Shown: positions 1,006 to 22,808 of the stretch, piece after piece
Numbering within the stretch: the first letter of the stretch is position 1
Layout: each line of letters starts with the position of its first letter
DNA from: Vezdaea acicularis
Lineage: Eukaryota
Direction: 5' to 3'
Assembly (NCBI GenBank): GCA_026025075.1
Contig: JAPEUI010000003.1
Location: 62,001 to 126,000, forward strand
DNA length: 64,000 nucleotides
Made by a program: the position numbers and the translations under genes
Notes under the pieces: model-generated
Told to the model about the DNA's origin: nothing
Database searches by the model: none
What the model saw: the letters and a program-made list of their open reading frames with translations, nothing else

Positions 1006-3668
1006 ATGGAGTCTTCAGCAGAAGACTTCCTACCCCTCGAAAAAGAGAACAAGCATGGGGAAGGTTAGTCTTCTTGTCTCTCCTACCCTCACGTAAGAGC
1101 TTGGCTCGTCTGACTTTGCCTGACTTTGCCGTGTCATAGGTTACACTGAAGATACCGCGGAGAGCTCCAATGCCGACTCGGGAAAGCCGCCGACTGCGGC
1201 ACAACCTCAAGCCGTCCGGTTCAGTTCTTCTAATCAGGAAATTGAACCTTCAGAACCCTCTGAGTCTCTGAGAACTACCACTACTGACATTAATCACCCA
1301 ACGACGAACTCCGGGCTGTCAGAGGACGCACAGCAACAACTCAAAAGTCTGTCGCTCTCGTTGCAGAAGTCTCGAATGCATAACTTTGCTTTCGAACCTG
1401 TCTCATTGCCAGTGTCAAGGGTATGTTATTCATTTTGTTTACTGTACGATGTCCACGTTCTAGAGGCTCTCTTCGCGAACCTGTACATGCTTTGGGTCAC
1501 AAGTACCAGCGCAGCATTTCACTCCCAGCATCAAGATTTAAATACTCCCTAGAGCTATAGGTACTAACCTGTGCCACAAAGGTTCCATCGAACGAGTCCT
1601 CGTCGCACCCAGCTTCCCGCGAAGCTACCGATTCGCGCGCACTATCTCCTCTTGACAGTCCGTCACAATTACCGATGCATTCTCCTCCCATTACGCCCGC
1701 TACCACACGCTCTCAAGAAGCAAAGCCAGAATATGGTGAGATGAGTGTAGAGGCGTTCAGGGAAAAGAATGATCCCTCAAGCACTGCATCGTCGCTCCCT
1801 TCCTCGGATCAAATGTCTACCCGACCGACGTCAGTATCCGGAGACTCTGTGATGATGCCACCTCCACCTCAGCCCCGACATGTCCCAAAGTTCTCTATTG
1901 GACCAACTGGCGACTCTCTTCCAGCGTCGAGAGACCCAAGCCCAGACGGCAGATCGAGTTCTGGGACCACCACGCCATCCACTCGCCCATTCGCACCTGC
2001 AGGGGAGAAGGACGACCCTTACGCCAGAAGTAAAAGACCGCCTCAATCTCGAAATCTTGATAATATCGACCCGCGGTTCATTTTCGGCAGCGCAAAAGAC
2101 CATAGGCGGAGTCAGAATCTGACGTCTACCGGGCCTAAGAATAGCAGTACCTCGGACGTGAAGCTTCAAGTGGAACAGAATAGGCATTCCGGAATCTTTG
2201 GATTGGGCAAAGAGAAACTCCCAAATCATCTTAATGATGGAAGCAAGCATGGGTCAATGTCCGACTTAAAGCGGTTCTTCCGGCTCGGACACAAATCGAA
2301 ACGAACTCCGTCCCCTTCGTCGTCTCTAAAGTCCACCAAATCTGGCACACAAACCCCACCCCATCGCCAATCTCAGCCAGCGGTTCCGTTCGCTGACGAC
2401 CATGCACTGGAAAACAAATATGGCAAGTTTGGCAAGGTTCTCGGCTCCGGAGCTGGAGGTTCCGTTCGTTTGCTTAAGCGACCCGCAGACGGGACAACTT
2501 TCGCCGTGAAGCAATTCCGTGACAGACACCCCTACGAGACGGAGAAGGAGTATGCAAAAAAGGTGACTGCAGAGTTCTGCATTGGGTCTACCTTACATCA
2601 TGGGAACATTATTGAAACGATGGATATCATTCACGAAAGGGGGAAATGGTACGAAATCATGGAGTTTGCGCCTTTCGACCTGTTCGCTATCGTTATGACC
2701 GGGAAGATGACAAGAGAGGAGGTGGCCTGTTCTTTCCTGCAGATATTGAGAGGCGTCGCCTACCTTCATAGCGTGGGATTGGCCCATCGAGATCTGAAGC
2801 TTGACAACGTGGTTGTGAACGACAAGGGCATCATGAAGATCATCGATTTTGGGAGCGCGAGTGTTTTTCGATATCCGTTCGAGAACGATATCGTCTTGAC
2901 GTCAGGTCCGTATTACCCGCTCGGTACTAATTTCTGCGCTAACAATAACATGTAGGCATCGTTGGATCTGACCCCTACCTCGCCCCCGAAGTTTACGACC
3001 TCCCCAAATATGACCCACAGCCCACTGACATCTGGTCGCTTGCTATCATTTTCGCCTGCATGTCCCTCAGGCGCTTTCCCTGGAAAGCTCCCCGTGTCTC
3101 CGACAGCTCCTACAAACTCTTTGTTTCTCCGCCTTCCCCTGGACAGCCCATCGGCGAGACTGGAAGGCACATGTCAGAACCCCACGCTCATCCCAAATCC
3201 GCCCCAGACCTCCCATCCCAGAAAGCGCAGGCAGAAGCAGAAGGGGGTGGGGGATCTCCCGATGCTTCGCGCAACAGCACCCGCGACACGGAAGGCGGCG
3301 ATAAAACGCAGCACCACCACCATCACCACCACAACATAACCAACGAGTCTGCGCCGGCCGATGACCGCGTAGCTGCTCGATCTGCTTCCCAGAGCGAAGG
3401 CACGTCCTCGCAGACCATGACCATCAAAGGCCCCTGGCGACTCCTCAGGCTTCTGCCACGGGAAACCCGGAGTATCATTGGCCGCATGCTCGAGGTGGAC
3501 CCGCGCAAAAGAGCAAAGCTGGAAGAGATTTTGAAAGATCCATGGGTTAGCGAAACGGCGGTTTGCGTGCAAGAAGATGGCGGGAAGGTCGTATTGGCCG
3601 ATACTCATGTGCATACGCTTGAGCCGAGCTCTGGAGAGGGTCCCGCGCCAGCAGCTTCGAAGAAGTGA
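1006..3668 (+). CDS. SAT4: HAL family Ser/Thr protein kinase (Hal4/Sat4-like, ion homeostasis); 4 exons approx. 1006-1063, 1140-1420, 1582-2906, 2956-3668
   Basis: Kinase motifs [42 protein letters not shown] and IIDFG are present, and [12 protein letters not shown] appears after splicing. GT-AG introns with branch sites join the frames. The N-terminal VRFSS..EIEP and [10 protein letters not shown] segments are typical of filamentous-fungal Hal4. Confidence 0.9.
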
Positions 3669-4689
3669 AAGGCTAACTTTTTGGGGAGACATGGCTGAAG
3701 CGTGTGAAGAGCGCATTCATGGCTAGTGGAAGAGGCGTGTCGGATGGCGGCCGTAGTCGGGCGTTCATAAAGGTCAGGTCTGGTCCTACTTTTGTTCTGG
3801 CGCTGGGAGGATAGCATTTGATCGAGGCTCGGGGAGGGTGGGCTCTGGCTTGTGATACTCTCATGGTGTTTGATTATTATGAAAATCGGCGGCGGAATAG
3901 ACATTGTAACTGCTCTTGCGCTTTTGAGCGGGGAGCGCGCCCCATCACCGCGGGCAGAGGCTAGAAGAGCCCTCGTCTCCGATCTGGGCTGTATACACAC
4001 ATTCTTTTACTAGATGGTAATCGCGACTTGGACGTCACCAGTGACTGAATCCATTCATAGGGCTGCACATTCTAGCGGTGGATACAGTGTGCTTGACTAT
4101 GAATATGTTATCGCGAACGGCTTCAAGATGGACGAATTACACTTCTCGCATAATGGGAAGGGGCGTGGCGAGGTTAGGTCGGAAGCTACAAACACAGCAA
4201 TCGAAGATTAATCCCGATGAGACCGCAAAGCAGAAAATAACGATCCTTTGTATCTCAGCTCTTTGAAGACCCCATTGCCCAATACCCACCCCTTGGCTGT
4301 ACCCAAAAGATATGGACAATGGTGTGATAAGTTGGCCCCAACCAAGCAGTCAAGAGACAGCTTGTCTGTAGTAGTATTGCTTCCCCTTCAGCATTTCAGG
4401 AAAAAGGAAAAAAGTGCAGTTTCCAATCCTCCAATCAAACACTGGTTCCCAAAATATCACATGACCCAGCTAAGCGAGCCTTGGCAATTCGGGGGAGTCC
4501 AAGTCCAAGTCCTTACGGGCCTGCCTGGTGCTGTGCGTACCAGCCTCCTCCACCACCGCATATCAACAACCACCACCACCACCACAGCGGCGGCAGTGGT
4601 ATTCACCCACGATCGGTCGATTGACCACGCACGTATAAGCATTCTCTACACCTTCCCTTTTCTACTCGCTAGAAAAGTGAACATTCGCA

Positions 4690-5882
4690 ATGCCTCGTCT
4701 TCCAGCCTCCGCCGCGACGCCATCAGGTGGTACCCGCGGCCCGGGACGTCCCTCGCTGGGCGGAAAATCGCCGGCGGGAGGCGGTGGGAAGTCCTCTGCG
4801 CGTGGGAGGAAGGGGACGGGGATTCGTCGACACAGGTATGTTTTCTTCTCTTCCAGGCAGAACGTTCACGGGAGGGGCTTCTTTTGCTTTGCCTTGCTGG
4901 CTGGTGCGGAGGAGCAGGCGGGAATAGGCGCGTATAGACGCGTGAGGAAGTGCTTGGGGTTTGCCTTGGTTGGGCGGTTGGATGGGTTCGGCTAATGACG
5001 GGCCTGTACAGGAAGATTCCGAAGGATAATATTCGTGCGATTAGTAAGTGCCTCCTGTGAGATTTTTGTTCTTCGGGGTTGAGATTGCTGATGTTTGGAT
5101 AGCTAAGGGTGATATCCGGTAAGCTCGGCGAGTCTTGCAATCTTTTCCATCGCTCCGATTGCTATTGTTGTCCATCTGTACTGTGAAGCTCAAGGCCGAG
5201 CTCAAGTATATCCCCTAAAATTTAACTAGACGAGGTCTTAATAAATTTGGATTGGCCTATCTTTCTTTATTTGGTCCCATCTTGATTGGTGGACCAACCT
5301 CAAATTTCTCGCCTGACTTGGACTTGCCCAATCCGGCAATACGTTTTGGATTTATTTGTTTTAATTTGATAGGAAAAGCTGACTCTTCTTTCCTAAAGTC
5401 GTCTTGCTCGCCGTGGGGGTGTCAAGCGTATCTCGGCTGCTATCTATGACGATGTCCGTGGAGTGATCAAGAACCAGGTCAATGTTGTGAGTATACATTT
5501 GTCTTGTTACTTTACGGGGAGAGCTGATGCTGGCTTTTAGATTATGAGAGATGTCTGCATTTTCTTGGACCATGCCAACCGGAAAACCGTAACCGTGACT
5601 GATGTGAGTTTATCCTATCACAGAAAATGAAGTTCAGTGCTAATAAACCTTAGGTCATCTTCGCCTTGAAGCGCGTAAGTACTTTCCTGTATTCGGGGAT
5701 AAACCTAGAAACCCGCATCAAACTCTTAATGGCTAACCTCGCTTTCTACAAAAGATCGGTCGCCCCATCTATGGCACGTCTCCCCCCTCTTCCTCGGCTT
5801 ATGTCCACCTCACTAATATATCACAGGCTTCGACAGAGACACCTTCCACGAGCGCCCCAAGCGACGTCGTCCTCACGCCTAG
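4690..5882 (+). CDS. Divergent histone H4 variant (fungal hH4v/H4E-like), 146 aa; exons 4690-4835, 5012-5043, 5103-5118, 5399-5486, 5541-5603, 5654-5674, 5755-5773, 5827-5882
   Basis: The spliced product reads ...[103 protein letters not shown]. It is collinear with the canonical H4 core (RHRK..[25 protein letters not shown]...KRKTVT.MDVVYALKR.GRTLYGF). All 7 introns have branch sites and keep the frame. Confidence 0.9.
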
Positions 5883-6193
5883 ATCTCTGCTATGCACCCT
5901 GTCCGTCAAAGGCCCTTAACGAAGAGCTCATTCCCTTCCTCCCCTCTATCACACCTACCTCGCCTCTCTCTTCTTCAAACAATGTCCTGCGCTTGTTGGG
6001 TACAGCTTTAGTCGGGGCTAGAGAGGATCACGTGGCTTTGAACGGGGTTTTTTTTGCTGAGGCTTTGTTTCCGACTTCTTTCAACTTTCCTTCCTGAGGG
6101 CTGAGTTGCACGTGCTGGCCTGCCTGGATAGCGGGCTGGTTGGCTGGCGTTCGGGATGTTTCTGCAAAGCTTGGGCCATTGCTGATATCTGTG

Positions 6194-6224
6194 GCTTTGG
6201 CTTTGGCTCTGGCTTTGGCTTTGG
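6194..6224. repeat. (GGCTTT)n hexamer microsatellite, about 5 copies
   Basis: ggctttggctttggctctggctttggctttggc read directly from the sequence. Confidence 0.7.
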
Positions 6225-6922
6225 CGATGGAATGGGATGACATGGCATGGGGGATTCGTAGTAATTATGCTCTGGCTTACGGAATTTCACTCGTGATTAC
6301 TGCGTCATGCTTTGAAACCGAAACCTGGCCTGACTTTCCACAACCTATTTCCCCCCAAAGCGAAATGATCACAAATACCAGATCCGCACCACCAAAAACG
6401 CACATAAACTTTCCCTCCTCCCCACTCCCAGACTTCATCGCCCACAGCAATGAGCGTCACAAGCATCGTATCCTTCACTTGCAGATTACCCCCTTGAATA
6501 CAAAATGCGCATGTGAGCATTTACCCCGGTACTTCCACATGTCGTACCGTTCTTTTCCCCCTCGCTCTCTAGATAAAGTGCTGATATTAACTGTGTCTTT
6601 CTCATCCCTCCACTTTCTCATGCATTTTTTTCTGTTTTTGTGGGGGGGGGTTGTGATGGCACTATGAATAATGGTCTTGGCTTGTACTGGGTACTGAGGA
6701 TATCGGTTGGTTGTGGTTTGGGAGAGATTGGGTGTGCGGCGTTGGCTGGTTGGTGAGTGGGCGCTGGTCTCGAGAAAAGTCTAGCATCGTTTGTAGAGAA
6801 TAGAAGGGGTTCTAGTTCGTATACGCGCTGGAAACAGGTGCGGTGATAGATTTGTATGGATTTGCTATTCAACTGGTATCACCTTTTCCCTTCCACACCC
6901 CTCTTCCCCCCTACCCCCCCTT

Positions 6923-7891
6923 TCACTCCACCCCCTCACTTCTCCCCCCCTCCTCCACCGGCGGCGGCGCTGGTTCCCTGCCCACCCTCTCGCCCTTACT
7001 CTCCCCCCCGACCACCTTCGCCAAACTCTTCCTCGCCCGCTCCTCCCGGCCCGAAAAGCCCGCCATGAAGAGTCCGGGGAGCAGTTTCTTGCAGTTCGCA
7101 TGCTCCTTATCAAACACGACCTTGACATCACTTCGGCACCGCTCGCGCGCAAGCTTCACGCCTTCTTCCAGGAGCGCGCGACCGACGCCCGTCCCGCGGT
7201 AGCGCATCTTGACCGTCCACGCGCGCACGAGGACGGTCTTTGGGGCGGAGGTCTTATCCTCGTCTTTCGGTGTCGATGTTGATGCAGGTTGTTGGCTCTT
7301 CTTAGCCCCTTTCCTTGCGCTTCCACCCGCCGCCGTCGACGACGACGCAGCTGATGACGAGGCCGCGCCTGAGCCTGGCGGGAAGCGCAAGATCAGTACA
7401 CCGATGACCAGGTCGCCGTATGTGGTTACTAGGATATCATCGGCCTCTCCGCCGATACTGCCGCCTTCGGGCTTCAAGAAGCCCAGGTTGAGCTGCTCCG
7501 CGGCGTTGATGTAGCCGGCTGTGGCGCCGCGCACGGCGACTAGGCAGGCCATGCAGATGCCGGCGAAGGTCGTGAATATCAGGGGTAAGGAGGCATTTGT
7601 ACCGTCGTACATGATTGAGGTGAGGAAACCGAGGAGGCCGATGAAGAGGGAGAGGGAGAGCGGGTGGAAGATTAGGGCACGGCTGGCGAGTTGGCGTTGT
7701 TGGGCGATGCTGTCGGCGATCAGTTTGAGCGCGCTGATGATGGTTGTGGGTGAGGTGGCGAGGTAGGTGGAGAGGGGCGGGGCGGGGACGATGGGGACGG
7801 GCTCGGTGAGGGGGGTTGCGTCGGTGGTGGGTTTGGGGAGGGCGGAGGGGTGGGGTTGGGAGGGCGGTTGCGCGGTTGCGTCTTTAGCCAT
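6923..7891 (-). CDS. GNAT-family N-acetyltransferase with two hydrophobic (likely TM) segments, NAT8/camello-like architecture; 322 aa, single exon
   Basis: The acetyl-CoA motif A is VRAWTVKMRYRGTGVGRALLE. Hydrophobic stretches LSLSLFIGLLGFLTSIM and LPLIFTTFAGICMACLVAV lie N-terminal to it. Confidence 0.8.
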   Translation of the reverse strand: MAKDATAQPPSQPHPSALPKPTTDATPLTEPVPIVPAPPLSTYLATSPTTIISALKLIADSIAQQRQLASRALIFHPLSLSLFIGLLGFLTSIMYDGTNASLPLIFTTFAGICMACLVAVRGATAGYINAAEQLNLGFLKPEGGSIGGEADDILVTTYGDLVIGVLILRFPPGSGAASSSAASSSTAAGGSARKGAKKSQQPASTSTPKDEDKTSAPKTVLVRAWTVKMRYRGTGVGRALLEEGVKLARERCRSDVKVVFDKEHANCKKLLPGLFMAGFSGREERARKSLAKVVGGESKGERVGREPAPPPVEEGGRSEGVE

Positions 7892-8219
7892 TGTGGCGGT
7901 AGGAGGTGATTTGGGAGAAGGGGATGTAGAAGCGGTAGATGATATGTGATGGTTGAGGAGGAGAGAGTCGGTGGAAAGGCAGGCGGAGGTGGTGTGAGCG
8001 AGAGTGAGGTTGTGGGAGAGGGAGGTGTAAAACGCTAATGGCGGAGCGCGCTGTTGTTAGCAACGTTGCTCCTTCTTAACAAATTTGCGGAAAGGCGGAA
8101 AGATGTAGGAGCGTGTCCTGGCGATGAAGAAGAAGACAGAAGACAGGAGAAGAAAAAAAAGGGTAAGGCTGAGGTCTCGATGCGGCGGAAGAAAAAGCTC
8201 CAAGTAACAAAAAAACGTG

Positions 8220-8735
8220 TTACTCCGATGATTCTTCCCGACCTTCCCCATTCTCTCCGCCACAGAACCCATGCAGGTTAGGCCCCACAATTACAGAACT
8301 CCTGGTCTGCCTCTCCACCCTCGAAACACATGCTGGTTGGTTAAGGAAAAAGGTGCGCTGCTACTCACCAGCACCAGCCCTCCACCCTCCCTTCTCCGTC
8401 ACCTTCTCGACGACCTCGTTCAGGCCAATTCCCCTCTTCAATCCACTCAACAGACTCCGATCGGCTTCCCTCTCGTCCATGGCATCCAGACGGCGTTGCG
8501 CCCAGCAGACGACATCCTTGAAGTCGGCGGCCGCCCGGCGCATCCACGTTGTCCAGCCGGCCCCACGGATTGGCCGAGCGCTCTTCGTGGCTGGTGCGCC
8601 GTGGCTGTCTCTGCGGGACGAGAAGTGGCTTGAGCCGGTGTGGGGGCCCGCGTCGTTGCTGTTGGCGTTGGACGAGGAGGAGGAGACGAGGAGGTGGGGC
8701 GGGGGAATCAGTGGTTTGCGGTGATAGTGTCGCAT
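8220..8735 (-). CDS. Possible small orphan protein (2 exons, speculative)
   Basis: A 124-codon ATG ORF has a helical-looking core (WTTWMRRAAADFKDVVCWAQRRLDAMDERE) and ends at a GTGAGT donor. A CTTAAC...CAG acceptor would continue the frame to a TAA near 8220. No family recognised. Confidence 0.3.
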
Positions 8736-9625
8736 TGCTCGAAACGCTGGCAGAACAGTAGAAGAACGACCCTAAAGCCAAAGCAAAAGAAATCTCGAGA
8801 GCTTCAACATGCAAGAGAGCCTTGAGCACAAGAGAGGCCCTCTCTGGCGAAAAGAAGTCTAGGAAGAAAGGTTCGTCCTGACGTAGATATAGCAGGAAGC
8901 CAGCAAGCAGGCAAACTATTATGCTATCTAGCAGCGCAATTGTGCTATCGCTCTCGCGCGCGTCACATCCCCAAACGTCCTACAGCACGCCATGCCTCAT
9001 ACAAGCAAATGCGCGCGTGAGCGACCCAGTCCCCGGGCTGGAGCGACGCCAAAAGGATCGCAGCTGCTCACGCCCTTTGCACACATACAGATAAGTGAAT
9101 CTTCCATCCCCCATGGCAGGCTGTCGGGATGTCACCCCGGCGCTACCGTGGCTTGGACGCACGAGAGATAACGGCCGCGCCGCTGTTTCGCTGCTGCAGC
9201 CTTCGAGTCGAATGGGTGTTGAATGGCGGCATCCTTGTCACGCATGAGAGTCTAGACGGGTATAGAAGCAAGTAGGATTCTCAAAGTATGAAATGTTTAT
9301 TTTCGAAACCTAGAAACTATGCTACAATCTCATGGCGATCAATCTGCTTCGCCAAAAAACGGCACAACCGTGAGACAAAGAGGTGATCGATCCGAGGGGT
9401 ATAATCAGCCATCAGCCCTATGTAGCAACGCTGGAAGCCCCCCTTATACGCCAGTCCCCCGCTAGAGTAACAGCTAGAAAAGACCTCTTGTCGATAAAAG
9501 GAAAAGGTAAAAGTTGAAAGCGGAAGGCGGAAAGCAGATCGGCGCTGCACCATGAAAATGCTACAGAATGCAGTTGCACATACTCTTCGTCCAGATAGGA
9601 AAGAAAAAGGAATGCGGACCCTCGA

Positions 9626-12600
9626 TTATGCGGCAGCCTCTGCCATAATCTGATCCCCTTCATCTAGTAGGTTTGTGACGAAACCCAAATTCTGGATCAT
9701 ACTCTTCCCGTGCCCGACCAACAGTAGCTTCTCCGCGTTGGCTGGGAGGCCGAGATACGTCGGTGGTTCGCGCTCTGGGAGGCGGTTCACCCATCCTAGG
9801 AAGTCCTTCAGTCCCGTACCGGTTGGCGCAGTCAATCCGCCATCCACACCAGCTTCTCCATCTCCCTCTGCATCAGCAACACCATCAACGAGCTTGTGAT
9901 CTGTCTCGAAAGCGGCGGGAGTCATGAACCGAGCGACGAGGTCTGTGAGCTGTTGGAAATCGCTCTCGTTGTCGATCTTGCCGCCGTAAGTTTCTGTGAC
10001 CATGGTACGAATCATATCCCAGGGTAATTTTGAGGGCGAGACGTTGGAGCGCCCGCTGGCAACAGACTCCACCCATGTATCTATGATGAAAGCGGAACAT
10101 TCATACTATTACATATTAGAACTGTAGTATGTCTGAAAGACAGAGGATAGACTTACATCACTATCATTAAACTCCCAAAACCCCTTCCATCCGAGGCTAG
10201 GGGCGTACCGCAATCTTTCTTGGACGACGGCATGCAAGAATGACAGTAGAAGGTAAACCCTCGCCCGCTCGATCGGAGCTTTTGAAGCCCTTGTAGACAA
10301 GGACGATAGTGAATCTTTCATGTTCGCTCGTACGCCGGCCGGTTGTTCATACATCAGTACCCGAGAAGCACGGAGCAGATTGACAGGGATCTTCGGACTC
10401 GACTCCATAGACAGGAACAGTCTGAAATTCGCGTGGGGCTTGAGCGAATCCAGTCGCTTCTCCAAGCTCTGAAGCCAGCTCGGGGCCAGATGCACGTTCT
10501 TGACCAAAACCCATGACCCGTTCGCTGCAGCATTGCTGACAGCCTTGTCTGCACTCGTGAGGCCCTCGTTGGAGCCCATAGCGATATTGGTGCAGTGGGT
10601 ATGCATTCGCTCAACTAGGTTGTCGACTTTGTAACTTGCATCGAATCCGGGACTGGAGCTAAGTGCAATCGGAGTGCCAGCGGACACTTGTTCGACAATC
10701 TCCTTGAGATCACCACTGCCCTCAAAGAGGCCTTTCCCGAAGACGGCAGTCACAAACTTCTCTGCCGCAGGAACGAAGCGATCAAGACGGAACATTTTCA
10801 CAAGTAGGAGTGATCGAAGATGTTTGTCGAATGGCTCCGCATCTGATGGCGAGACGGTAGGAATAAAGTTCTCAGCCAGCTCTTCTGAGAGGAAGCTATG
10901 CCATTCATTCGCGGAGACTTTCTTGATGTAACCTTTGAAGATGGGAACACGCGAAGCTCTTAACATGGCTTCGTCTTTGCGCTGATGCTCTGTGGACACA
11001 TCAACACCTTCAAGGCCATCGTCGAGAATATTATCGATGAGGCCTTTGTCCATCTTGTAAGGAGAAGCTTGAGCTAAGAGCATTGCAAGAGTGATTCGAT
11101 CCTTCTGTAGAAGCCCAAGAGAAGTTCGCTGGTAAGTTGTCACGAAGAGGTCTTGAAGGATGATGTCCATTCGAGCAGAGTGGTGTCTTTCTGCTGCCAA
11201 GCGCTTGTTTCCATGAAGGACCGAGTTGAAGATGTTCACGAAGTATTGAAGCGAGAACTGGTAGAAATGGTTGAGGTGATGCAGCTGCTCAAGCACAGCA
11301 AAGACTGCGCTGCAGGATCGAGCGATAACATTGTACTGCAGGGTGATCTCCTCTACTTCCGTCATCACGCCTTCAGTTTCAGTCATCTTGGAAGATATCT
11401 CGGCTGCTTCTTTCTTCAATGTCTCCAGTGTTTCGATTACGTTGTCATCGTCGAGGATATTGCCGCGCGACTCGTTGAGCGCTTGAAGAAGTCGTTTCTC
11501 GAGTTGTCGAAGATGAATCTTAAACTCTCCTTGCAACTTGATGAGATTAGACCGCCGCTCATCGACGTCAGGCCGTTCGCACTTGAGAACTTCGTTGAGT
11601 GATTGCGTCTGCAGACTGCTTTGTGTCACTGTGAAATTGACGAACGTTGTCCGACTGCAGATATCTGGAGGGAAGGTGGCCGAAGGATCTCGTGTGGAAA
11701 GGTACAGCTTGAAAGCGGGCGAAAAGTCTATCTCTTGCTTGCCTAACTGAATGAGAACACGACCACCAGTCTTCTGATACTCCTTGTTTAGGACGTGATT
11801 CAAGACGGGATCCAGATGCTCGGCGTCTTGGATGAGGATGGGATTACCAAACCGTAGCGAGCTCTCGAGCTGCTTGGTGAAAGAATCATCCAAGAAACTC
11901 GTCACAGTCAGACGACGCTCCTTGCTCTCCTTTTGCAAGAACTCCGTGACTCGGCCAGACGGATCAATGATTAGCGGGTAGCGATTGAACCTCTTGAGAA
12001 TGATTGCATTCTCAGTGCAAAGATCATCGACTGGTAGCGAGTTTTCTTGCCACTCAAGCCGCTCATCCGCCGTCGAGAGGTACTCAGTGACAGGGTTGTG
12101 AGCCTTGTATTGGATGCCAGAGAGTGAAAGTTGTTGCAACCAGTCTTCTGTCATCGTCTTCCGGTATTGCTGGTCGTAAAGTCCACTGTAAGCCAGGAAA
12201 GCCGATGCAATCAAGACATCACCGACTAGGGTGCTAATCTGAGTCTCAAAGGTCTTGCTACCTTCCTCCCATCTTGTACGCTCTGAAGATAGGCTGTCGA
12301 GTAATCGAACGCTTCGATCGACCTTAAACTGTACGCGAGACATTTCGGTCTTAATAGCTTGCGTCTCGCTGATCAACGCAGCATATTCGCTCTTGTAGGT
12401 GGCAATGCTCTGCTCCAGGTTATTGATAGTGTTCTCGATGGCCAGTGCCTCTGCTTTTGTTTGGAGTGCTCGCTCTTCCAGCTGACCAACCTCATCTCGA
12501 AGAGGTCCAACGCGATCCAGAATCTCCGAGTAGTTGACCTGAGCCTCGACCCATTGCACAAGAGGACCGCAGGCTTTGCTTGCCCTGTTGACTTTCTCGA

Positions 12601-15600
12601 AGGTGAAGTCTTCTTTTGAAAGGAAGTCGTTGCGCATCTTGACACGATGGCTTCGCGTCATCTGCTTCTCGTTGTCGTACGTGACGATACTTCCGATAAA
12701 GTCATCCTTGCGGATGATACCTTGGATAGTCTTCCAGCTATCGACTTTGTGACCAAGAAGAGTACATACTGCCTCAAGCGCAAGCTTTACACCTTGCGGT
12801 GGGCTGCCCATCGATCTTACCTCGGTTAGATGTTGGCGTCGAATGTTCTGTACACTTTTCTGAGCCTCTAGGACTGCAGGTTCGGCATTAGCAAGATCAT
12901 TCAGAACAATCTCTTTTCGCTGTGCAACCTCCTCTTCCTGCTTTTCTAGAGCAGCCTGTACCTCTAGAGAGGTCGTTTTCCGCTGCTCGGCCTCTCTTTG
13001 GTCAGCAACCATACGTTGGAGCTTCTCATTCGCCTCGGCATCCTTCCTTTCGAGTTGATTTTTCTTGGACGCAAGACTAGCGCGAAGATCTCTGACTTTA
13101 TCAACAGTGTCTCTGAGTTTCTCCAGGCCAACGTTTAGATGGCGTTGCTGTTCTTCAAGGTCTTCACGCTTCTCATTGTATAGCTTGACGAACTGGGCGA
13201 CAAAATCGAGGAAATGCCGTGGAGTCAAATAAGTGACCTTGCCTTGCTGCTTCTGCAGCTTCAAGTTGAAACCGTGCAATGAGTAGTGCATGTACACCAT
13301 TGAATTGATAACAGTCTCACGGTGCGACGGCGGCAACACGAGATCGCGATAGGCGACAGGGATAGTGTCCGGAGGAGCAAAGTTTGGCCGGTCGATGTCG
13401 ACAGACTGTGTGAGTTCAGAGCCGACTTGGAACAAGGCTTGATCCGACCAATCACCAAACCAATTAAGAACACAACGGTTGAAAAGCGCAGGACTTGTTG
13501 CAGCTTTGGATGAGAGACCTTCTTCGGGAGGATTCATGGTGAAGACGACGTGGAGATTTTTAATGATCTGTTGCGTGAACCATTTGTATAGTTCTTCTTG
13601 AGAGTCGAGCAAGAGACCTTGCCTCTGAGCCCCTTCTTTGCAAGCAGTCATCAAAGATGCGAACTCATCGCCCTCAAAGAGACCTGGCACCTCGGCGTTG
13701 GCCAGCAGGGTGTTCATGCGTTCCAGGAAACCCGAGTCAAGGACATTCGATTCATCCATGATGAAGCAAACCTTTTCGCCCTTGCATCCAGTACGACGCA
13801 GGACATCTCGAAGATCGTCATCGAAGTCTTCTGCGGAGTATTTGCCATGGACCTTGATCTGGAAAACCTTGAGCCCATTCATCCAGGCGACAAATCGTGA
13901 TAGAGTGGTCTTCCCGCTACCGCTAACGCCAATGAGGATCAGATGGCCTTGGGGCTGACGGAAGACCCGATCAATCCGGAGGACATGCTCCAAGACGTCG
14001 TTGAACAGCACTAATGGTGTGTCGACTTCCTCTTCACAGAAGGTCTTGAGACGTGCTTTGACGAACTCGCGTAGTTGTTCTCGGTCGACAGGGACATAAT
14101 TCTTGGATAGCCAATTTGAATATAGGATTGGCCCGCCCAAGGCCTTCCCTTCGTCGATAGTAGGGAAGTGCTCCAAGGCGATGCGCTGGCTAGCTTCCTG
14201 AGTCCACTTGCGCTCATCTTCCGCAACAAGTCTGTCCTGGAAAAGGCGAAGGGCTTCGTGCGCCCAAATCCTAACCAGGCCCTCAACTGTAAGCGTCTCA
14301 AGTGGTCGAATAGCCTCATAGACGCCGCGAACCCATCGAGTAAGCTCACGTGGACTGTACACGTAGTGCGGTTGGATCTTTGGAGTAAAGCGAGCTTGTG
14401 ACTCCAAGTAGAACTGAACCATGGCCTTTGTGAGTGGGTCTGAGAATCCACGAAGGGCAGGAACGATCTTGAGAACTGCGTTGTTGAACGTGCTATAGAT
14501 CTGGAAGAGGGACAATTCTCCCGGATAATCAACCATGATTAGAGGCGCGTGCCGTAGGAAGCGAGGGCCCATAGGTGTACGGCCGGCATCGGTGGGAGGA
14601 TTGCAGGCACCAACAAACTGAATGCGGTCCAAGGTTACCCAAGTCTTGTCTGTTGTCCGCCAGAAGCCGTTCTGTTCCACAAGCTGGCGCAAAAATGAGA
14701 TTGCGCGTTGCGTTCCATACTTGTCGGGAGCAGGTAGGTTTATTTCGTCGCAGAAGATGACCAGCCAACGTCCGATCTGAGTCGGAGACAGTATGACGCC
14801 ATTCAGAGTCTTCTTATATTCGCAATACTGTTCGAACGTCTTGATAAGTAGATCTGGAGTGGTGGCACTCGAGAAATTGAGGCCTACGACCTCCATGTTT
14901 GGAAGCTTTCGGAGGGCGCTAAACAGCGTCATCGTCTTTCCAGAACCAGGGGGGCCACATAGCAGAAGTGGCTTGTGCTCAGCCAGCCACGAGTATAGTA
15001 CATCCTCATGTCGTACAGTGTCAAGGGTTGGGATGACCATGTCAGTTTGAGTGATTGAATGTGTGTTCACCTCGATTGTAGGCACTTGAGACTGCCATGA
15101 TTGCCACTCGGCTTTGGGCAAAGTTACGTCAAAGTCGATAAGAGATGTCGATTCTCCCGAGGAAGGCAAGCCGAATGTTGTTAAGCCCACGACGAAGTCA
15201 CCAAAGACCTTACGATCGCTAAGTGGGCAGTCGCCAGTGAGAGACCACACAAGCGCAAGCAATAGCTTCTTCGAAATGTAGGACTCGATCTGTTCAGGCT
15301 CAAGCGGGAAATCCACGTGCTGGATGTTATACTCGATCATGCTGCGGCAAGACTTGTTAAGTAGCGAGAAAAGTGTGTTGAGGACTCGAGCGACAGTATA
15401 TTGCATAATGTGGTTGAATCTACGCGATTCCTCAAGAGCCTTGCCGATGAAGTCGTCTGTCGTAAGGTAATGCTGAAGAAGATCAGCGCTTAAGGTCTGG
15501 ACAGCGAGAGCCTTGGCGGACGCTTGACCGGCTGCGACGTTGTCCTCATCGAGATCCTCGAAGACGTTTGATCTCAATGTGCTGAGATAGTTTGTGATCA

Positions 15601-18600
15601 TCATGTCTGGAGTGACAGTATCATCACTGAACCAAACCATGCCACATCGACTGACAGTTGCCAATGTTGCGTATTTCAGTGTCTCTACTTCAAACATGAT
15701 TCGCACGTTTGGTGGTAGATTAAGACGCTCTCCATTGGGTAGAGTCAATAATTTGTTGTCGTCTAGCACACTGTTGAGATTCTCAACCCATTCAGGGTCG
15801 ACGTCGCCATCGAATACAATCCAATGTCTCTTTGAATCCTCACCACGTAGGTTGTCTACGATCTTCCTCAGGATGCTTGTGAATAGACCGTCTGTCCATT
15901 CCCGAGTAGTGCTGTCAAGATTACCATATAATGCCTCTTTTGACATTACCTTCGAATCGATAACATGACAGACACCCTCGACACCCTCGACCCTTTGCAA
16001 AGCTTGCAGGAGGACTTTCCATGCCGCTGATTTGCCAGAACCAGAATCTCCCACCATCATCACACCATGGTGGATCGTCTGAATCTGGAAGAGCTGCAAT
16101 ATCTTGGTCATCCAGGTGTCGTTTACCACAAGATGTCGCTCCGCGGCGATACTTTGAATTGCTGTTTCCAATTCAGTCAAAGTTGCGGGAACATAGTCGA
16201 CTCCAGGGAAAGCCTCGGCCTCTATGGACTTCATGATCTCCACGTCGTCCTTGATGAGCTTGGGTGCGATAGTCTCACGAATGCTCTGAACGATGATTTG
16301 AGGCTCAACCTCTTCTTCAGGGCCAAGTTCTCCGCCATTACTGGTGAGGCGGAGACGCTTGAGACCACCAGAGCTGACCAGCACACTCTTCAACGCGCGT
16401 AGACCGAAATCGTAATGCGCTTGCTTAGAAAGCAAGGCTGCGCAGCGGTCGAAGAACGGCACTGTTTGTTTTGAAAGCTGCTTTGCTTGATTGAACCCCT
16501 GGGAGTAGAGCATGACTTCCGCGATAAGCTCCTTATCAGGCTTGGACATTGCAACACTTCGAAAGAGTTTCTTCAGATTGTCGGGAAGGTTAGAACGTCC
16601 TGCATATCCAGGGTTCATGGTAATGAAGATGCCAGTATCCTCATTCACCCTAAGCTGACGGCCCACGAGCTCGATTTGGACTTTGGGATCATCGACGCCT
16701 TTCTTTAAGCCCAGTTGGATATTCTGAACTTGCTGTGAGACAGCAGAGAGTATTCGCTCCTCTAATCTGTTGAACTCATCGAAACACCCCCAGGCACCGA
16801 CTTGACATATGCCAAGGAAGATACGACCCATAGCTTGAAAGTCGAATGTATCGTCGCAGCAGAATACCAACGTGAAACGACCGAGCTGCACACCTAACGC
16901 TTTTACAGATTCCGTCTTCCCTGTTCCTGCGGGGCCGTAGGGCGAGCCTCCGAGCCGTTGGCAGAGAGCTTGGGTAAGTGTGAGGAAGCAGCGATCGGTT
17001 AGAGGCGTACGAACGAGCCGTTCTGGAACACCAAGGTACTCGAAACCATAGTTGAGCAGCGCGTTTGCCATCTTAACATGAAGTCTTTGCAGATAATCGC
17101 CTTCTGCTTTGTAAACATAACGCATCTGAAGAAGCCACATGTAATGGCTTATGTTGCTGGCCTTCAAATTAATTAGCTTGTCAATGACGTCCCGTTGATG
17201 GACGCATTCCGTGATCAGATGCTCGCACTTCTTCCGTGCGATAGGCTCAAGATCTCCAAGGACAGTCGCTGCTAGTAGCTTCAAGATCTTCACCTCTTGA
17301 TCGTATAAAGCTGGTAAGTCGGAGCCTCCTTCATCAAGTGCGGCTTCAACAGCCATTGTCCAAACGACTTGGGTAGCTAGCACAACGACCTGGGCCGGAA
17401 AAGCGGCAATGTATTTGGCAAACTCAGCTTGATCAATCTCGTCCTCACCAAAGATGACCTCAAACTGCTCTACTGCTTCCGCAAGCAATTCAGCCAGAGT
17501 AGCTTTCATACTGTTCTCGAGCGCAGCGAGCCAATCATTTATCTTCGGAGTTTTGACGAGAGAAATCTCCTTCTTGAGTTGAACCTCTTCACCTTCCTTA
17601 GAAGAGAAGCCGGTTATGATAGAATCTTCAGTCATGACGAGACCAGAAAGCCCTGCAAACATCTTCTTGAAGTGCTTTGCGATTCTTAGTGTGTCATTGC
17701 TGTTCCCAATGATTTCCAAAAGGTCCTCATCGCCAACGAAATAGAATCTTGGAAAGGAGACACGCTCGCGCTCAAGATACTCTCCCAAAGCTTTCTGAAT
17801 CTTGTTGAGGAGCTCCGCGAGCCGCTCAAGAGATTTTTGAACGCCAGATATATTGAGCACATCAAGCACGAATGGCGACTTGTAGACCTTTTTCATGACA
17901 GCGTAGAATTCGGAGTTGATGTTCTGAAATCGGGATGACTCGATTGGGAGAAGGTGTTTGATATCTGCATTACCAGTGAAAACTCCTTCCAGGTAAACCC
18001 ATTGGCGCTGCACGTCTATCCACACGTCAAATAGGACGTGAACTCGATTGAGCCTATCTTCCCAAGAGGAGGCATCGTCTTCAAACTCCTTGTAGTACGG
18101 CGAGTGTCTCATTGCTTGCAGTGAGTTTAGATTCTCGCTACACTTTGCGAAAAGATCATCCCAGCCCCGGATTAAGCGGCACTTGTTCTGATAATTGACT
18201 AAGTCCAATGAGTAGTTGCTCCATGTCTCACGGACTTGCTTTAAGAACTCTTCGAGGGCCATCTCGCCTTGGGCTTGAGCAATGATATCGCGAATGATAG
18301 CCTCGGTTGATGAGAGGTTTAAGTCCCAGACGTCGCCCAATGTCATAGAGATTGCAGAATAGCGCTTATTGGGTTTTAACGCCTTGAAGATCTTAACCCA
18401 ATGCCGTTCCCTTACTGCTTCCGACTTCATCTCTGAAAGTAGTGGATTGACCTTCAGTAGTTGACGTAGTACGGTTTGGACATGCTCAAATGCAGCGTAT
18501 TGTCGCATTCGACTGGGCATTTCCTTGGTCATCTTGATCAGACCATCGAGTGACTGCCGGAGCTTTCGGGGCTGGACAGTAGTCCACAGTGCCTCTCTCA

Positions 18601-21600
18601 ATTCGTTCAGGCTTCTCCAGATGGTCGATAAGGCGGCCCAAACGGACTTGAAATCCTGTACTTCCTCAAGAACAGCTGAAAGCGCGGTATCGGGGCTCGG
18701 CGGTAAGTCGAGTGCCTCTTTTGCCTTGGAGACCATCTCCGAATCGGATCGAAGGCGAGTGAGTTGAGTTTCGAACGAGCTTAAAGTCGCTGATGCCTCT
18801 TCAGGGGCTATCGTGCCTGACACAGGCTTCTCTTGGCCCCATCGAGCGATGATCTCGGCGATCTTATCGCCAACCAGTTTATCCTCCGCCGTAATTTTGG
18901 CTTGCAGGGCGTCAGTCTGATCTTGTACGATCTTGCCTTTCCGTGTGAGGATATCATTCAAGGCATTCCACTCGTGGTCTATCTGCTCAACGTAGAGCCA
19001 GTCGGATAGAAACTGATATCGTTGGCGGTTTAATGTTGATTCCCCTTGTCTGAATAGATCGATCTCAGGACCCCAAGCCTTGACCTTCCGCTTGCTTTGC
19101 TGCACGATGGTGATGAAAGTGACAGCCTGGGCTGTAGACGATGCCTCCAAAGATAAGCCCTCAAGATCTCTTCTCGCTTTCTCAACATCCGCGTTGACAT
19201 CGCGCATCCGGTTACCAAGGCGTCCGGCAAACTTTTGAAGAATCTCATGTTGCCATTGGTCGTACTTGGCGTTCACTTTGGTTTGCACCTGCTCATAATC
19301 TATAGTGATGTTGCCGAAGGAGCGGCTGACCTCGGATGTGTCAAAGGTAGAGCGAGTTTTCCTAATTTCTTGCAGGAGCTGAAGCCACCGTGCGAGTTTC
19401 TCGCCAAGAGTGTCGTAAACTTGGTCCGACTGAAGATCCCAAAGCGATTGAAATTGAAGCCATTTGTCGACATAAGCGCCGATCTCTTGAAGCTTGCTCT
19501 CTATGGCATTGTAGACTTCAGTCAACTTAGCAGCACAGAGACCAGGCAGATCAGTAAAGCGTGTTTCAGCCTCACTAGAGCCGTTCAGACCAATCTTCAG
19601 CTCGTATCTTGAAGATTTGACCCTCTGCACGTTGCATACGATTCCAATCCATGCATGCAATTGAGTTACCCAGCTAGCCCTCGCGTACTCTAGAGGTGGC
19701 TCAAGGTAGATGACCTGATTTCGCATCGAAACCTCGTGGACGAGGCGTGGTAACTGAGGGTCAGAATCCAGGTTCGACTCTTTACCCTGAGTTTGGCTGT
19801 GGCGTTTTCGAACACTATCTTCGTTGACACCCTCATTCCGAGCATTCTGAAAAACGTGAATCCACCGTGATATTGCCTTGTCTAATCGAGCCAGGAGGAT
19901 CGCTTCAATACGTTTATTGACCTGCGTGACCCAATACGTCAAGTTTACGTAGTTTTCCAGGTTGAGCTGATCAACCGCGTTTTGAACAGTTTCCAGTCGG
20001 CTTTGGAAAGCGCCGGCACTGTACGCGCAAGTCTCTAGCTCTGCTAGAGCTTTCTGGACTGTCTCATTTACGACCCAGAGGGTGGTTGTCTTGCTCGAGA
20101 GTATCGAAACCGCGACCGCAAAATCTCGAACGAACTGGACATGCCTGCTCTCTGAGCGTCCTGACCCTGGCTGATCGATACTTCCATTTTGATAGCTGTA
20201 GTTTCGAATCGAGATATCATAGTAATGGACGAATGATTCCCATTTTAGGGGAATACCCTTCATGATAAGAGCTTGCACGTCGTTGTGATAGCCGCAAAGG
20301 AGAATGGACACATCCGACATCTCTGTGATGGATCGAGTGGTTGACTTATAGGTGTTCACGCTTTCCATGAGGCTCATTGCGTATGGATATACCCGCTTCG
20401 CCTCTTTAGAAGTATTGCTGATAGCATGTGGGACATTGTAGTTTAGCCACGTCAGGTTTCGGACTTCCTTGAAGAGCGTTGCAACTCGAGAATTGAAGTT
20501 GACGCTAATCTCCAACGCATTACCGGCTGCACGATTCCGTATTATCTTGAAAAGTCGTCCTTCTATTGCAACTTGCCTCGATGAGACGTCTTGAAGCCAT
20601 GCCTCAAAGATCGGTCGCGTGTCTAGCTTCTTTCGAAATAACTCGCTTTCGGCGCGCAGTTTTGCCCCTTCTGAGTGTACTGCCCAACTTCGACCGAGGA
20701 CGTCCTCCACCTTGCCCATATACTGGTCTAGCTGTCTCTCAATCTGTCGAACCCATATGATGGCACCAGCTGTTGGAGGAATGTCATGTAGATTGTCCAT
20801 CGCGGCTGCTTCCGAGTTACCATACTGTCTCTTGAAGCGCTCGTGTAAGTTTGCGATGTCGAGCTTTACACTGTCGAGAAGTTGTGCTTGGTATTCATTG
20901 ATAGCGCTGCGAATCTTCGGACGGACGAACAATGCGTTGAACTTTGAGAAGACGCGGAACATCTCGTTCGCGCCCTTTGCGGTCGCCAATCGATCTCGTA
21001 GACGAGCGATGATAGAGTTCTCTACTCGCGATGTCCGCTCGCTGTAATTGATCTCGGCCTGGACCCAGATCTGCGTGCCCTCTTCTGACACATCGAGCAC
21101 ATCAACATCTTTCAAGGCATTATATGCCTGCGCTACCTCCGCTACGGCATCGACATCGCCAATTTCCTCCACCAGCGCAACGCCATTCTGAACACCTTCA
21201 TCGCCATCAGCTCCACGAGCTTTCTTGGGGCCAAGCACGTTGACTATGGTCCGCTGAAGTTGCTCATGATTGACCCGAAATGTGTTCATATACTCAAGGC
21301 GAATCTGCGTTTGGATATGACGTCCGTTGACTTTGACTGGAATAAATTTCTCATTCCTCCGTCTCATGACTTCACGCGCAACATTTGTGAATTCTTTGAG
21401 GTGCTCATCCCAAGTTCGCCAGACACCATCAGCCTGCTCCATTAGTGCCTGAAAGTCCTTGAAGTCCAGATGCATCAATGTACGTCCATGAAGCAAGGAA
21501 TGAATCTGAGAGTCCAAGTCTGCAGAGATAGCTTCGACAAGGGGTAACGCTCGAGTGATAGGGTAGGGACATATTCGAAGCTTCTTGTTCAAGTGACTGA

Positions 21601-22808
21601 ATATGTCGTAAATGGCGTCTTGGACCTTTTCAAGCGAAGTCGCTGACAGGAGCTCATCTAGGGGGAAGTCTCGCATGAGCTGGTTATACTTCTGCACTTT
21701 TTCTGTTGCCTCTTTTAGGCCTGTATCCGCCGAAAAGCTGACTGTCGCCTGGAATCGCTTTGCATGCCGTAATATCTCAAGCGTGAGCTGTACGCCATCG
21801 CTACGTAACTTTTCCTCGATACCTTCCAGCGCAGATTCCATAGATAGCCAGAAGTTGATCTCCTGCGTTGCAGTACCACTTTCTGGATCCCGAGACATTT
21901 TGGTTATCCCCTGTATTGACTTGATCCATCCGTTGACTGTGTTCTGGAGACTATTGAGGAAGCTGCTGTCGGCCAATAGTGCTGGTGTCAAGAAGTCGAG
22001 TGTAGCCTTAGTCTTGCTGCCAGCAGCCTCGTCGATTGCATTTTGTACCATCGGGTGCAGAGGTAATGCTAGATCCGGGATCTCGATGTTTTGTTGCAGA
22101 TGTAATAGGCTGAGTTCGAGCTCGGCCATCTTCTTCTTTGCTCCAGGAATGCCCGCCTTAGCCTCCGTGTCAGCTTTGCTTCGGTTTCCGTTGACGCCAT
22201 CTTGACCTCTCGTGTATGCATCGAAGTATGGTGCAAGCGCCAGATGGACGACGGAATGGAGAACCTCAAAGGGTGAGACTGAGGACCCTTGGTTTGATAC
22301 GGCATTATTTAATAAAGCAAGACCAGGTAAGTTTATCACTTGTATCTGAGATGTGATGGGGATGGTGGGATCTATAGGTTGTGGCCGCTTCAGTAGCGCG
22401 ATTGAAGCGGCTGTAGTTGTGGAAAAGGATAGCTCTGACGCCAAGGCGTATATGTACTTTGTCCCTGACGCTAAAAGTTTATAAGAATGATGCTTTACGA
22501 GTGGGTGGAATCAGTCATTTACCTGATGCTTCCTCGGGGCCGTCGATGGTCTCCGTGGAGACAGCATCTTTCTGGACATAGAGAGCAACCTGGGTTTCGG
22601 AGGCAAACCTAGTACATCTCTGCACTGTGTCGGAATATCTCGATTTCGACAGTAGGCTTCCCGGACTCTCCAGATCCTTTCTCGTTGCCCCGAGCGTTAT
22701 CTGTAAAAGGCCTGAGAGGTAGTCGACCACTAGTGTTGGATCGATAGTGGGGAACGGGTTTGTGGTCGAGACCCCGTTCGCTGCCCCTGGAGAGAGGGGG
22801 CCCTCCAT
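9626..22808 (-). CDS. DYN1: Cytoplasmic dynein heavy chain (nudA/ro-1/DYN1), about 4359 aa; exons 22808-22523, 22470-10157, 10105-9626
   Basis: Four P-loops ([32 protein letters not shown]), the motifs CFDEFNR and [19 protein letters not shown], and the coiled-coil stalk are present. Two GT-AG introns restore one frame. Confidence 0.98.

Follow-up and report, generated by a model that had tools for sequence, protein, structure and literature searches.

The histone H4 variant hH4v of Neurospora is said to have been first described by Hays et al. in 2002. According to Flipphi et al. (2024, R Soc Open Sci, PMC10878826), the variant H4E is found throughout Pezizomycotina and possesses a specific gene structure. 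Section 2.1 of that paper describes a 5' part in which a phase-2 intron, an exon 2 of 29-32 nucleotides (nt), a phase-1 intron, a 16-nt exon 3 and a further phase-2 intron lead to an 88-nt exon 4. Outside Eurotiomycetes a 63-nt exon lies between phase-0 introns, and in early-diverging classes and Lecanoromycetes an extra phase-1 intron is located 19 nt past the last phase-0 intron (PMC10878826). Here, we analysed a locus at 4690-5882 on the plus strand of a stretch of 64,000 nt from Vezdaea acicularis (contig JAPEUI010000003.1, 62,001-126,000, forward strand); the whole stretch is called the window, and all coordinates are positions in it. V. acicularis is a microlichen fungus; NCBI taxonomy places its genus as leotiomyceta incertae sedis, and a move of Vezdaea to a revised Lichinomycetes was proposed in a 2025 paper (PMC12238968). 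With a probability of roughly 0.85, we take the locus to be intact and orthologous to the ascomycete variant of histone H4 known as H4E (Aspergillus hheA) and as H4v or hH4v (Neurospora NCU04338).

For the gene model, all stop-to-stop frames of positions 4300-6300 were listed and candidate exons were then joined by script. H4-like pieces were spread over three frames of the plus strand, and a canonical H4 query matched by tblastn at 5400-5627, from exon 4 onward. Joining eight exons gave an in-frame sequence of 441 nt that encodes 146 amino acids (aa) and a stop (Table 1), with another in-frame stop immediately 5' of the ATG (the stop-to-stop frame opens at 4681). Introns 1 to 6 are of the GT-AG class and have the donors GTATGT, GTAAGT, GTAAGC, GTGAGT, GTGAGT and GTAAGT (GTRAGY type), and intron 7 is a GC-AG intron with the donor GCACGT (atg followed by GCACGT). 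An AG acceptor and a CTRAY-like branch motif, 11-19 nt upstream of the 3' splice site, are found in all seven.

Alternatives for each intron comprised the GT/GC...AG pairs within 40 nt of both annotated splice sites, clipped to the flanking exons, plus intron retention, and the protein resulting from each was scored on a profile of orthologues. The modelled junction had the top score for every intron (172, 17, 154, 36, 12, 9 and 27 alternatives for introns 1 to 7, a total of 427). Intron 7 was the sole close contest, in which the GC-AG pair at 5774-5826 scored 190.6 bits and a GT-AG pair at 5778-5836 scored 181.5 bits. A first-pass annotation, made by a model from the sequence alone, had proposed that seven introns split a 146-aa H4-fold protein. 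The in-frame join and the top score of each junction among its alternatives uphold this proposal; the donor of intron 7 is GC and not GT. Judged by its sequence, the locus is an intact eight-exon gene with the seven-intron structure typical of the H4E/H4v family.

We compared this structure with the text of section 2.1 and the figure 1 legend of PMC10878826. Each of the H4E features listed there is present in the Vezdaea gene (exons of 32, 16, 88, 63, 21 and 19 nt; intron phases 2, 1, 2, 0, 0, 0 and 1), so that all seven intron positions and phases equal those of the published text. The exons of 16, 19 and 21 nt, already pointed out in the first-pass annotation, are real parts of the gene in the in-frame join.

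At its N-terminus, a public protein, P0001 ('MAG: hypothetical protein M1824_003409 [Vezdaea acicularis]', NCBI, 152 aa), shows 100% identity with the translated exon 1. When relatives of P0001 were collected, 725 of 934 candidates were retained at an E-value (E) of at most 0.001. Among the best 120 of these 725, most are named 'Histone H4' or are histone-fold proteins, have 110-230 aa and come from Pezizomycotina; N. crassa (P0047, 163 aa) is represented, as are Tuber, Xylona and Saitoella. A search of solved structures with P0001 returned histone H4 chains only among the 60 matches listed (best E 4.9e-27, residues 31-123). The spliced model itself matched proteins of Trizodia at 60% over residues 3-143 and Thelocarpon at 62% over residues 8-142, and N. 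crassa H4v at 58% over residues 22-141.

Two profiles were used to separate variant from canonical forms. The H4E-like profile was made from 110 of 118 relatives, that is, the best 120 minus P0001 and an insect protein (P0002); the set was defined by a crude rule that left out five relatives ending in GFGG and three without YGF. For the canonical profile, metagenome loci were translated, and of the 36 distinct canonical H4 sequences obtained, those with 100-105 residues were used. The model protein scored 190.6 bits on the former and 116.3 bits on the latter. A quick maximum-likelihood tree, computed from only 103 columns, contained the model, 28 canonical rows and 33 relatives picked so as to represent different classes. 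All canonical rows grouped in one clade (Shimodaira-Hasegawa-like approximate likelihood ratio test, SH-aLRT, 99), and the model fell on the other side, among the H4E rows. Its end branch of 0.38 is ordinary for the family; most inner forks of the tree are unresolved. Intron positions and phases, profile scores, tree position and end-to-end alignment with orthologues thus agree on the hH4v/H4E lineage that the first-pass annotation had named, and the phylogeny and intron comparison it had suggested as checks both came out in its favour. Identity as a canonical histone H4 was also considered and rejected: such a protein would have about 103 aa, begin with a SGRGKGGKGLGKGGAK-type tail, carry KPA in loop 1 and end in GFGG, and the Vezdaea protein is 146 aa long, with a tail that diverges, KGD in loop 1 and further residues past YGF.

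In the N-tail of the predicted protein, 46 residues precede the R17-equivalent, compared with a median of 48.5 in 100 relatives; the tail is Gly-rich, contains three lysines and six arginines, and ends in an RRHRK basic patch. In an alignment to a solved H4 chain made with HMMER and read by eye, the lysine of a GGGK motif falls at K5, arginine occupies K8 and K16, and K20 is kept. The view that the tail lacks the canonical lysine pattern is therefore correct for K8 and K16 but not for K5, and three lysines in a Gly context remain. Arginine at the K16-equivalent and lysine at the K20-equivalent, in the RRHRK patch, were read correctly at first pass. Among the 118 relatives, the K16-equivalent is arginine in 39 and lysine in 60, and a change at this position was also remarked on by Flipphi et al. 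(PMC10878826). KGD stands in loop 1, a reading shared by 78 of the 118 relatives, and KPA is found in all 36 distinct canonical sequences. The 13-residue H4 core is intact, as had been stated, both in the translation of exon 4 and in the alignment to the solved chain. By hand count, 13 of 32 helix 2 residues are identical to a solved fungal-type H4 chain, so that its earlier description as heavily substituted is fair.

The basic C-terminal extension predicted at first pass is present after YGF. It has 16 residues with a KRRR cluster, and the median length among 110 relatives is 11.5; aspartate follows YGF in 87 of these 110, and 47 have a basic cluster in the extension. The C-terminus fits the orthologue pattern YGFD-x-D-T, followed by an aromatic and then by basic residues. 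In an alignment of 22 orthologues covering several fungal classes, all 24 invariant columns are kept in the model protein; the G-x-P-x-Y-G-F columns are invariant, and the D of YGFD is at least 90% conserved. The C-terminal strand of H4 contacts ASF1 and the H2A docking domain, and we presume that the Y and F retained here serve ASF1 binding. Apart from the GC donor, nothing in the gene or its product is unusual for the H4E/H4v family.

Function has been described for two relatives. In A. nidulans, H4E is a nuclear protein that interacts with H3, and it has been proposed that H4E gives nucleosomes less prone to regulatory modification (PMC10878826). A bioRxiv preprint (10.64898/2026.08.11.744009) reports that N. 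crassa H4v sits in nucleosomes resistant to micrococcal nuclease (MNase), is found in a complex with H3 and ASF1, and is deposited in strict dependence on SAD-6, the orthologue of ATRX. By the same account, H4v is needed for trimethylation of H3 lysine 9 (H3K9me3) and small-RNA silencing of a perturbed array, and contributes in part to one RIP (repeat-induced point mutation) pathway. The first-pass annotation had called the function of the family unresolved. In this it is partly outdated, as the 2026 preprint gives SAD-6/ATRX-dependent deposition and a silencing role.

Because of these reported functions, we propose for the Vezdaea protein the role of a low-abundance replacement H4, placed by an ATRX-type remodeller at perturbed or repetitive chromatin, and give this proposal slightly better than even odds. 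By orthology, Vezdaea H4E would pair with H3 and be handled by ASF1. Only a minority of nucleosomes would receive it, from an ATRX-type remodeller (the SAD-6 orthologue) and not through bulk replication-coupled assembly, and it would not substitute for canonical H4. H4E nucleosomes would then be expected at perturbed or repetitive chromatin, where they may help to nucleate H3K9me3 heterochromatin and silencing. With arginine in place of lysine at the K8- and K16-equivalents, we infer that the tail would be non-acetylatable at those sites, which would fit a compaction-prone or silencing-prone nucleosome. The first-pass suggestion of nucleosomes with an altered modification pattern matches the discussion by Flipphi et al. 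and the Neurospora preprint, and may be retained as an idea.

The 3' end of the gene could be read in other ways. The public model P0001 equals ours over residues 1-122 and continues in another frame: it joins exon 6 straight to 5827 and skips the 19-nt exon 7, giving a frameshifted, Ser/Thr/Pro-rich C-terminus without the H4 C-terminal strand. It is the deposited annotation; exon 7 could tend to be skipped because signals such as micro-exons and a GC donor are weak, and a protein of Pycnora praestabilis (P0006) has a similarly aberrant C-terminus, unrelated to the YGFD end of the family. However, skipping reduces the profile score from 190.6 to 159.0 bits and removes the G-x-P-x-Y-G-F columns that are invariant in the 22 sequences, a 19-nt exon followed by a phase-1 intron belongs to the published family structure (PMC10878826), and YGF is followed by an extension in 110 of 118 relatives. 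The chance that P0001 is the true product or a major isoform thus seems remote to us. The end of P0006 probably arose from the same skipped-exon fault, and both ends look like the same error of automatic annotation. Because automatic annotation mis-models the H4E 3' end, surveys of the family that use deposited proteins will see false C-termini. A real gene whose intron 7 extends from a GT donor at 5778 to an acceptor at 5836 is also conceivable. It would encode 144 aa with the same basic end and with YGF-D-R changed to YGT; the pair is a canonical GT-AG one that keeps the downstream frame and is joint second-best of the 27 alternatives, at 181.5 bits. Its use would cost the invariant F and the at least 90% conserved D of YGFD and would create an exon of 23 nt and a phase-2 intron where the published structure has 19 nt and phase 1 (PMC10878826). 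Furthermore, its donor, GTCTCC, is without the G at +5 that the other six donors possess, and we consider this intron highly unlikely. The 19-nt exon, the GC donor and the competing frame-keeping GT donor are weak signals, and on their account we raise a further idea, very unlikely in our estimate, that the 3' micro-exon region is a splicing switch. One outcome of the switch would be an H4E that is competent for docking and has both the YGFD strand and the basic tail; the other would be forms without the C-terminal strand, made by exon-7 skipping or intron retention. If true, whether the variant can be loaded into chromatin would be under post-transcriptional control.

The locus might also be an H4 paralogue that is decaying or has no function, an incipient pseudogene, as would be suggested by the substitutions in helix 2 (13 of 32 identical to the solved chain, by hand count) and by an A. 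nidulans orthologue whose deletion has no phenotype (PMC10878826). We judge this the remotest of all the readings, as the frame is open over eight exons, splice and branch signals are kept in seven of seven introns, the 24 invariant columns are intact and the branch length is ordinary. Moreover, the family persists across Pezizomycotina (PMC10878826) and the Neurospora orthologue has a genetic function (10.64898/2026.08.11.744009). A more serious competitor, though still an unlikely one, accepts the H4E orthologue but has it act independently of ATRX/SAD-6, for instance as a replacement H4, induced by starvation or temperature, whose nucleosomes are simply less open to tail acetylation. Consistent with it are the nucleosomes less prone to regulatory modification proposed by Flipphi et al. 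(PMC10878826), the arginines at the K8- and K16-equivalents, and a C-terminal part far shorter in Vezdaea than in Neurospora (16 versus 35 residues). By contrast, nitrogen withdrawal is the trigger used for SAD-6-dependent remodelling in the preprint (10.64898/2026.08.11.744009), so that the ATRX-dependent and starvation views may describe a single pathway. As a hint of nitrogen regulation we counted HGATAR (GATA-factor) sites, which also speak against it: there are two in about 1 kb before the ATG, compared with a window average of about 2.8 per kb, and hence no enrichment upstream (the whole window has 181, with 160 +/- 13 expected). Several points weigh against the orthologue assignment, or against the replacement-H4 role that we prefer. 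Intron 7 relies on a rare GC donor with a frame-keeping GT-AG alternative in competition. Core identity discriminates weakly, with a median of 65% to 99 comparable H4E-like sequences and 61% to 32 comparable canonical ones, and a stable H4E phylogeny was not obtained by Flipphi et al. (PMC10878826). In Aspergilli, hheA sits between nudA (dynein heavy chain) and svf1 (PMC10878826); the svf1 half of this synteny was not found here, with no Svf1 family among the 36 long open reading frames (ORFs) of the window scanned with Pfam. As to function, neither deletion nor overexpression of H4E had a phenotype in A. nidulans (PMC10878826), and the Neurospora mechanism comes from a single preprint (10.64898/2026.08.11.744009). 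With 35 residues there and 16 in Vezdaea, the function of the Neurospora C-terminal part may not carry over.

Table 1. Exons and introns of the predicted H4E gene of Vezdaea acicularis
Feature	Position	Strand	Description
Exon 1	4690..4835	+	146 nt; ATG, Gly/Pro/Arg-rich N-tail to start of RRHRK patch; followed by a phase-2 intron
Intron 1	4836..5011	+	176 nt, GT-AG, phase 2; GTATGT donor, GCTAAT 17 nt before 3' end, CAG acceptor
Exon 2	5012..5043	+	32 nt; published H4E range 29-32 nt (PMC10878826)
Intron 2	5044..5102	+	59 nt, GT-AG, phase 1; best of 17 alternatives
Exon 3	5103..5118	+	16-nt micro-exon, codes TKGDI; published H4E 16 nt (PMC10878826)
Intron 3	5119..5398	+	280 nt, the longest; GT-AG, phase 2; next-best alternative 41.6 versus 190.6 bits
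Exon 4	5399..5486	+	88 nt; 13-residue H4 core and first half of helix 2; published H4E 88 nt (PMC10878826)
Intron 4	5487..5540	+	54 nt, GT-AG, phase 0; best of 36 alternatives
Exon 5	5541..5603	+	63 nt; remainder of helix 2 and loop 2
Intron 5	5604..5653	+	50 nt, GT-AG, phase 0; best of 12 alternatives
Exon 6	5654..5674	+	21-nt micro-exon, helix 3; in the figure 1a legend of PMC10878826 the 21-nt exon is the last phase-0-bounded one
Intron 6	5675..5754	+	80 nt, GT-AG, phase 0; best of 9 alternatives
Exon 7	5755..5773	+	19-nt micro-exon, codes up to YG of YGF; absent from the public model
Intron 7	5774..5826	+	53 nt, GC-AG, phase 1; ACTAAT 11 nt before 3' end; best of 27 alternatives
Exon 8	5827..5882	+	56 nt including stop; F of YGF and 16-residue extension with DxDT-aromatic motif and KRRR cluster

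Searches within and around the gene added little to this structure. Rfam gave no match at E of at most 1 in 4400-6200, and thus no known small nucleolar RNA lies in the long introns. When single exons were searched with Pfam, exons 1 and 4 had no match, and the 21 residues of exon 5 gave sub-threshold histone-fold hints only (CENP-S, E 0.015; CENP-T_C, E 0.19). By tblastn, no second H4-like sequence was found elsewhere in the 64-kb window. A short GGCTTT-type hexamer repeat lies at about 6187-6226 (+), some 300 nt 3' of the H4E stop codon.

About 3.7 kb from that stop codon is a very large dynein heavy-chain gene at about 9626-22510 (-). An uninterrupted frame of 4133 codons (10109-22510, minus strand), which continues to about 9626, matches DHC_N1, MT stalk, AAA_9, Dynein_heavy and AAA_lid_11, and encodes a cytoplasmic dynein heavy chain, the likely nudA orthologue. 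This neighbour partly echoes the Aspergillus synteny. The nudA/svf1 arrangement was described for Eurotiomycetes and Dothideomycetes (PMC10878826), and Vezdaea belongs to neither class. Directly upstream of the H4E gene is a protein kinase gene at 1561-3668 (+), which probably has one intron because it is split across two frames. Between the H4E and dynein genes, the ORFs 6923-8056 (-) and 8365-8979 (-) have no Pfam match at E of at most 0.001; protein-language-model neighbours of the former are ascomycete N-acetyltransferase (GNAT) clusters (score 0.97), which we treat as a lead only. The long ORFs at 24741-61778 are, by Pfam, ordinary fungal housekeeping genes, including a DUF7102/SAM_6 protein, a TauD dioxygenase in two pieces, Nup49, Fip1, XAP5, a HAD hydrolase, a TCP-1 chaperonin, a PP-loop protein, a mitochondrial carrier and WD40 proteins.

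A search of metagenome contigs for H4E loci kept 80, of which 64 code for proteins with the canonical GFGG end and 16 for other forms. Only two of the 80 are H4E-like (L001, 1172 nt; L003, 1088 nt), and both are uninterrupted ORFs. The former is identical over its 142 residues to a Tuber melanosporum protein (P0059). As the H4E gene of Tuber has the seven-intron structure (PMC10878826), both loci look like spliced transcripts. The insect protein P0002, the second-best relative by E-value, is a 218-aa 'uncharacterized protein' of Stomoxys calcitrans (stable fly) that matches many histone-fold Pfam families; it is about twice as long as H4, and either an artefact of annotation or a model of tandem or fused H4 could account for it.

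The family, its gene structure and, recently, a function are already published, and the Vezdaea gene is ordinary for this family. The new points are minor: the presence of an intact member in Vezdaea (which may already stand in the supplementary list of PMC10878826), a last intron of the GC-AG class, and a faulty public model. The scientific weight of showing H4E/H4v, with its unusually conserved micro-exon structure, intact in Vezdaea is accordingly small. If the Neurospora result holds and H4v is the histone partner of SAD-6 (10.64898/2026.08.11.744009), intact distant orthologues would support an old and conserved role in genome defence.

Compared with the H4E family as described for hheA (AN12228; PMC10878826), the Vezdaea gene shares intron positions and phases, the exons of 32, 16, 88, 63, 21 and 19 nt, the conserved H4 core with longer, divergent N- and C-tails, and a dynein heavy-chain gene nearby. 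It differs in having the non-Eurotiomycete form, with one 63-nt exon in place of exons of 45 and 18 nt with extra codons, and in carrying the extra 3' phase-1 intron. It also differs in the GC donor of intron 7, donor types being unmentioned in the main text of PMC10878826, and in its neighbours, as svf1 was not found in the window (36 long ORFs, Pfam). With N. crassa H4v (NCU04338, P0047, 163 aa), the protein is 58% identical over 120 aligned residues; in both, YGFD continues past the fold, the N-terminus is extended by a long stretch, and the core aligns to H4 without gaps. The Neurospora protein, however, has lysine at the K16-equivalent and KPA in loop 1 where Vezdaea has arginine and KGD, and the C-terminal part unique to it has 35 aa and ends acidic (10.64898/2026.08.11.744009), whereas that of Vezdaea is 16 aa with a basic cluster at the end. 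With canonical H4 (103 aa; for example 9lox_B and 1id3_B among solved chains), it shares the fold core (E 5e-27), the 13-residue core, the RHRK patch and the YGF strand. It departs from canonical H4 in its length of 146 aa rather than 103, its lack of an SGRGK start and GFGG end, its KGD instead of KPA in loop 1, its seven introns and its position outside the canonical clade.

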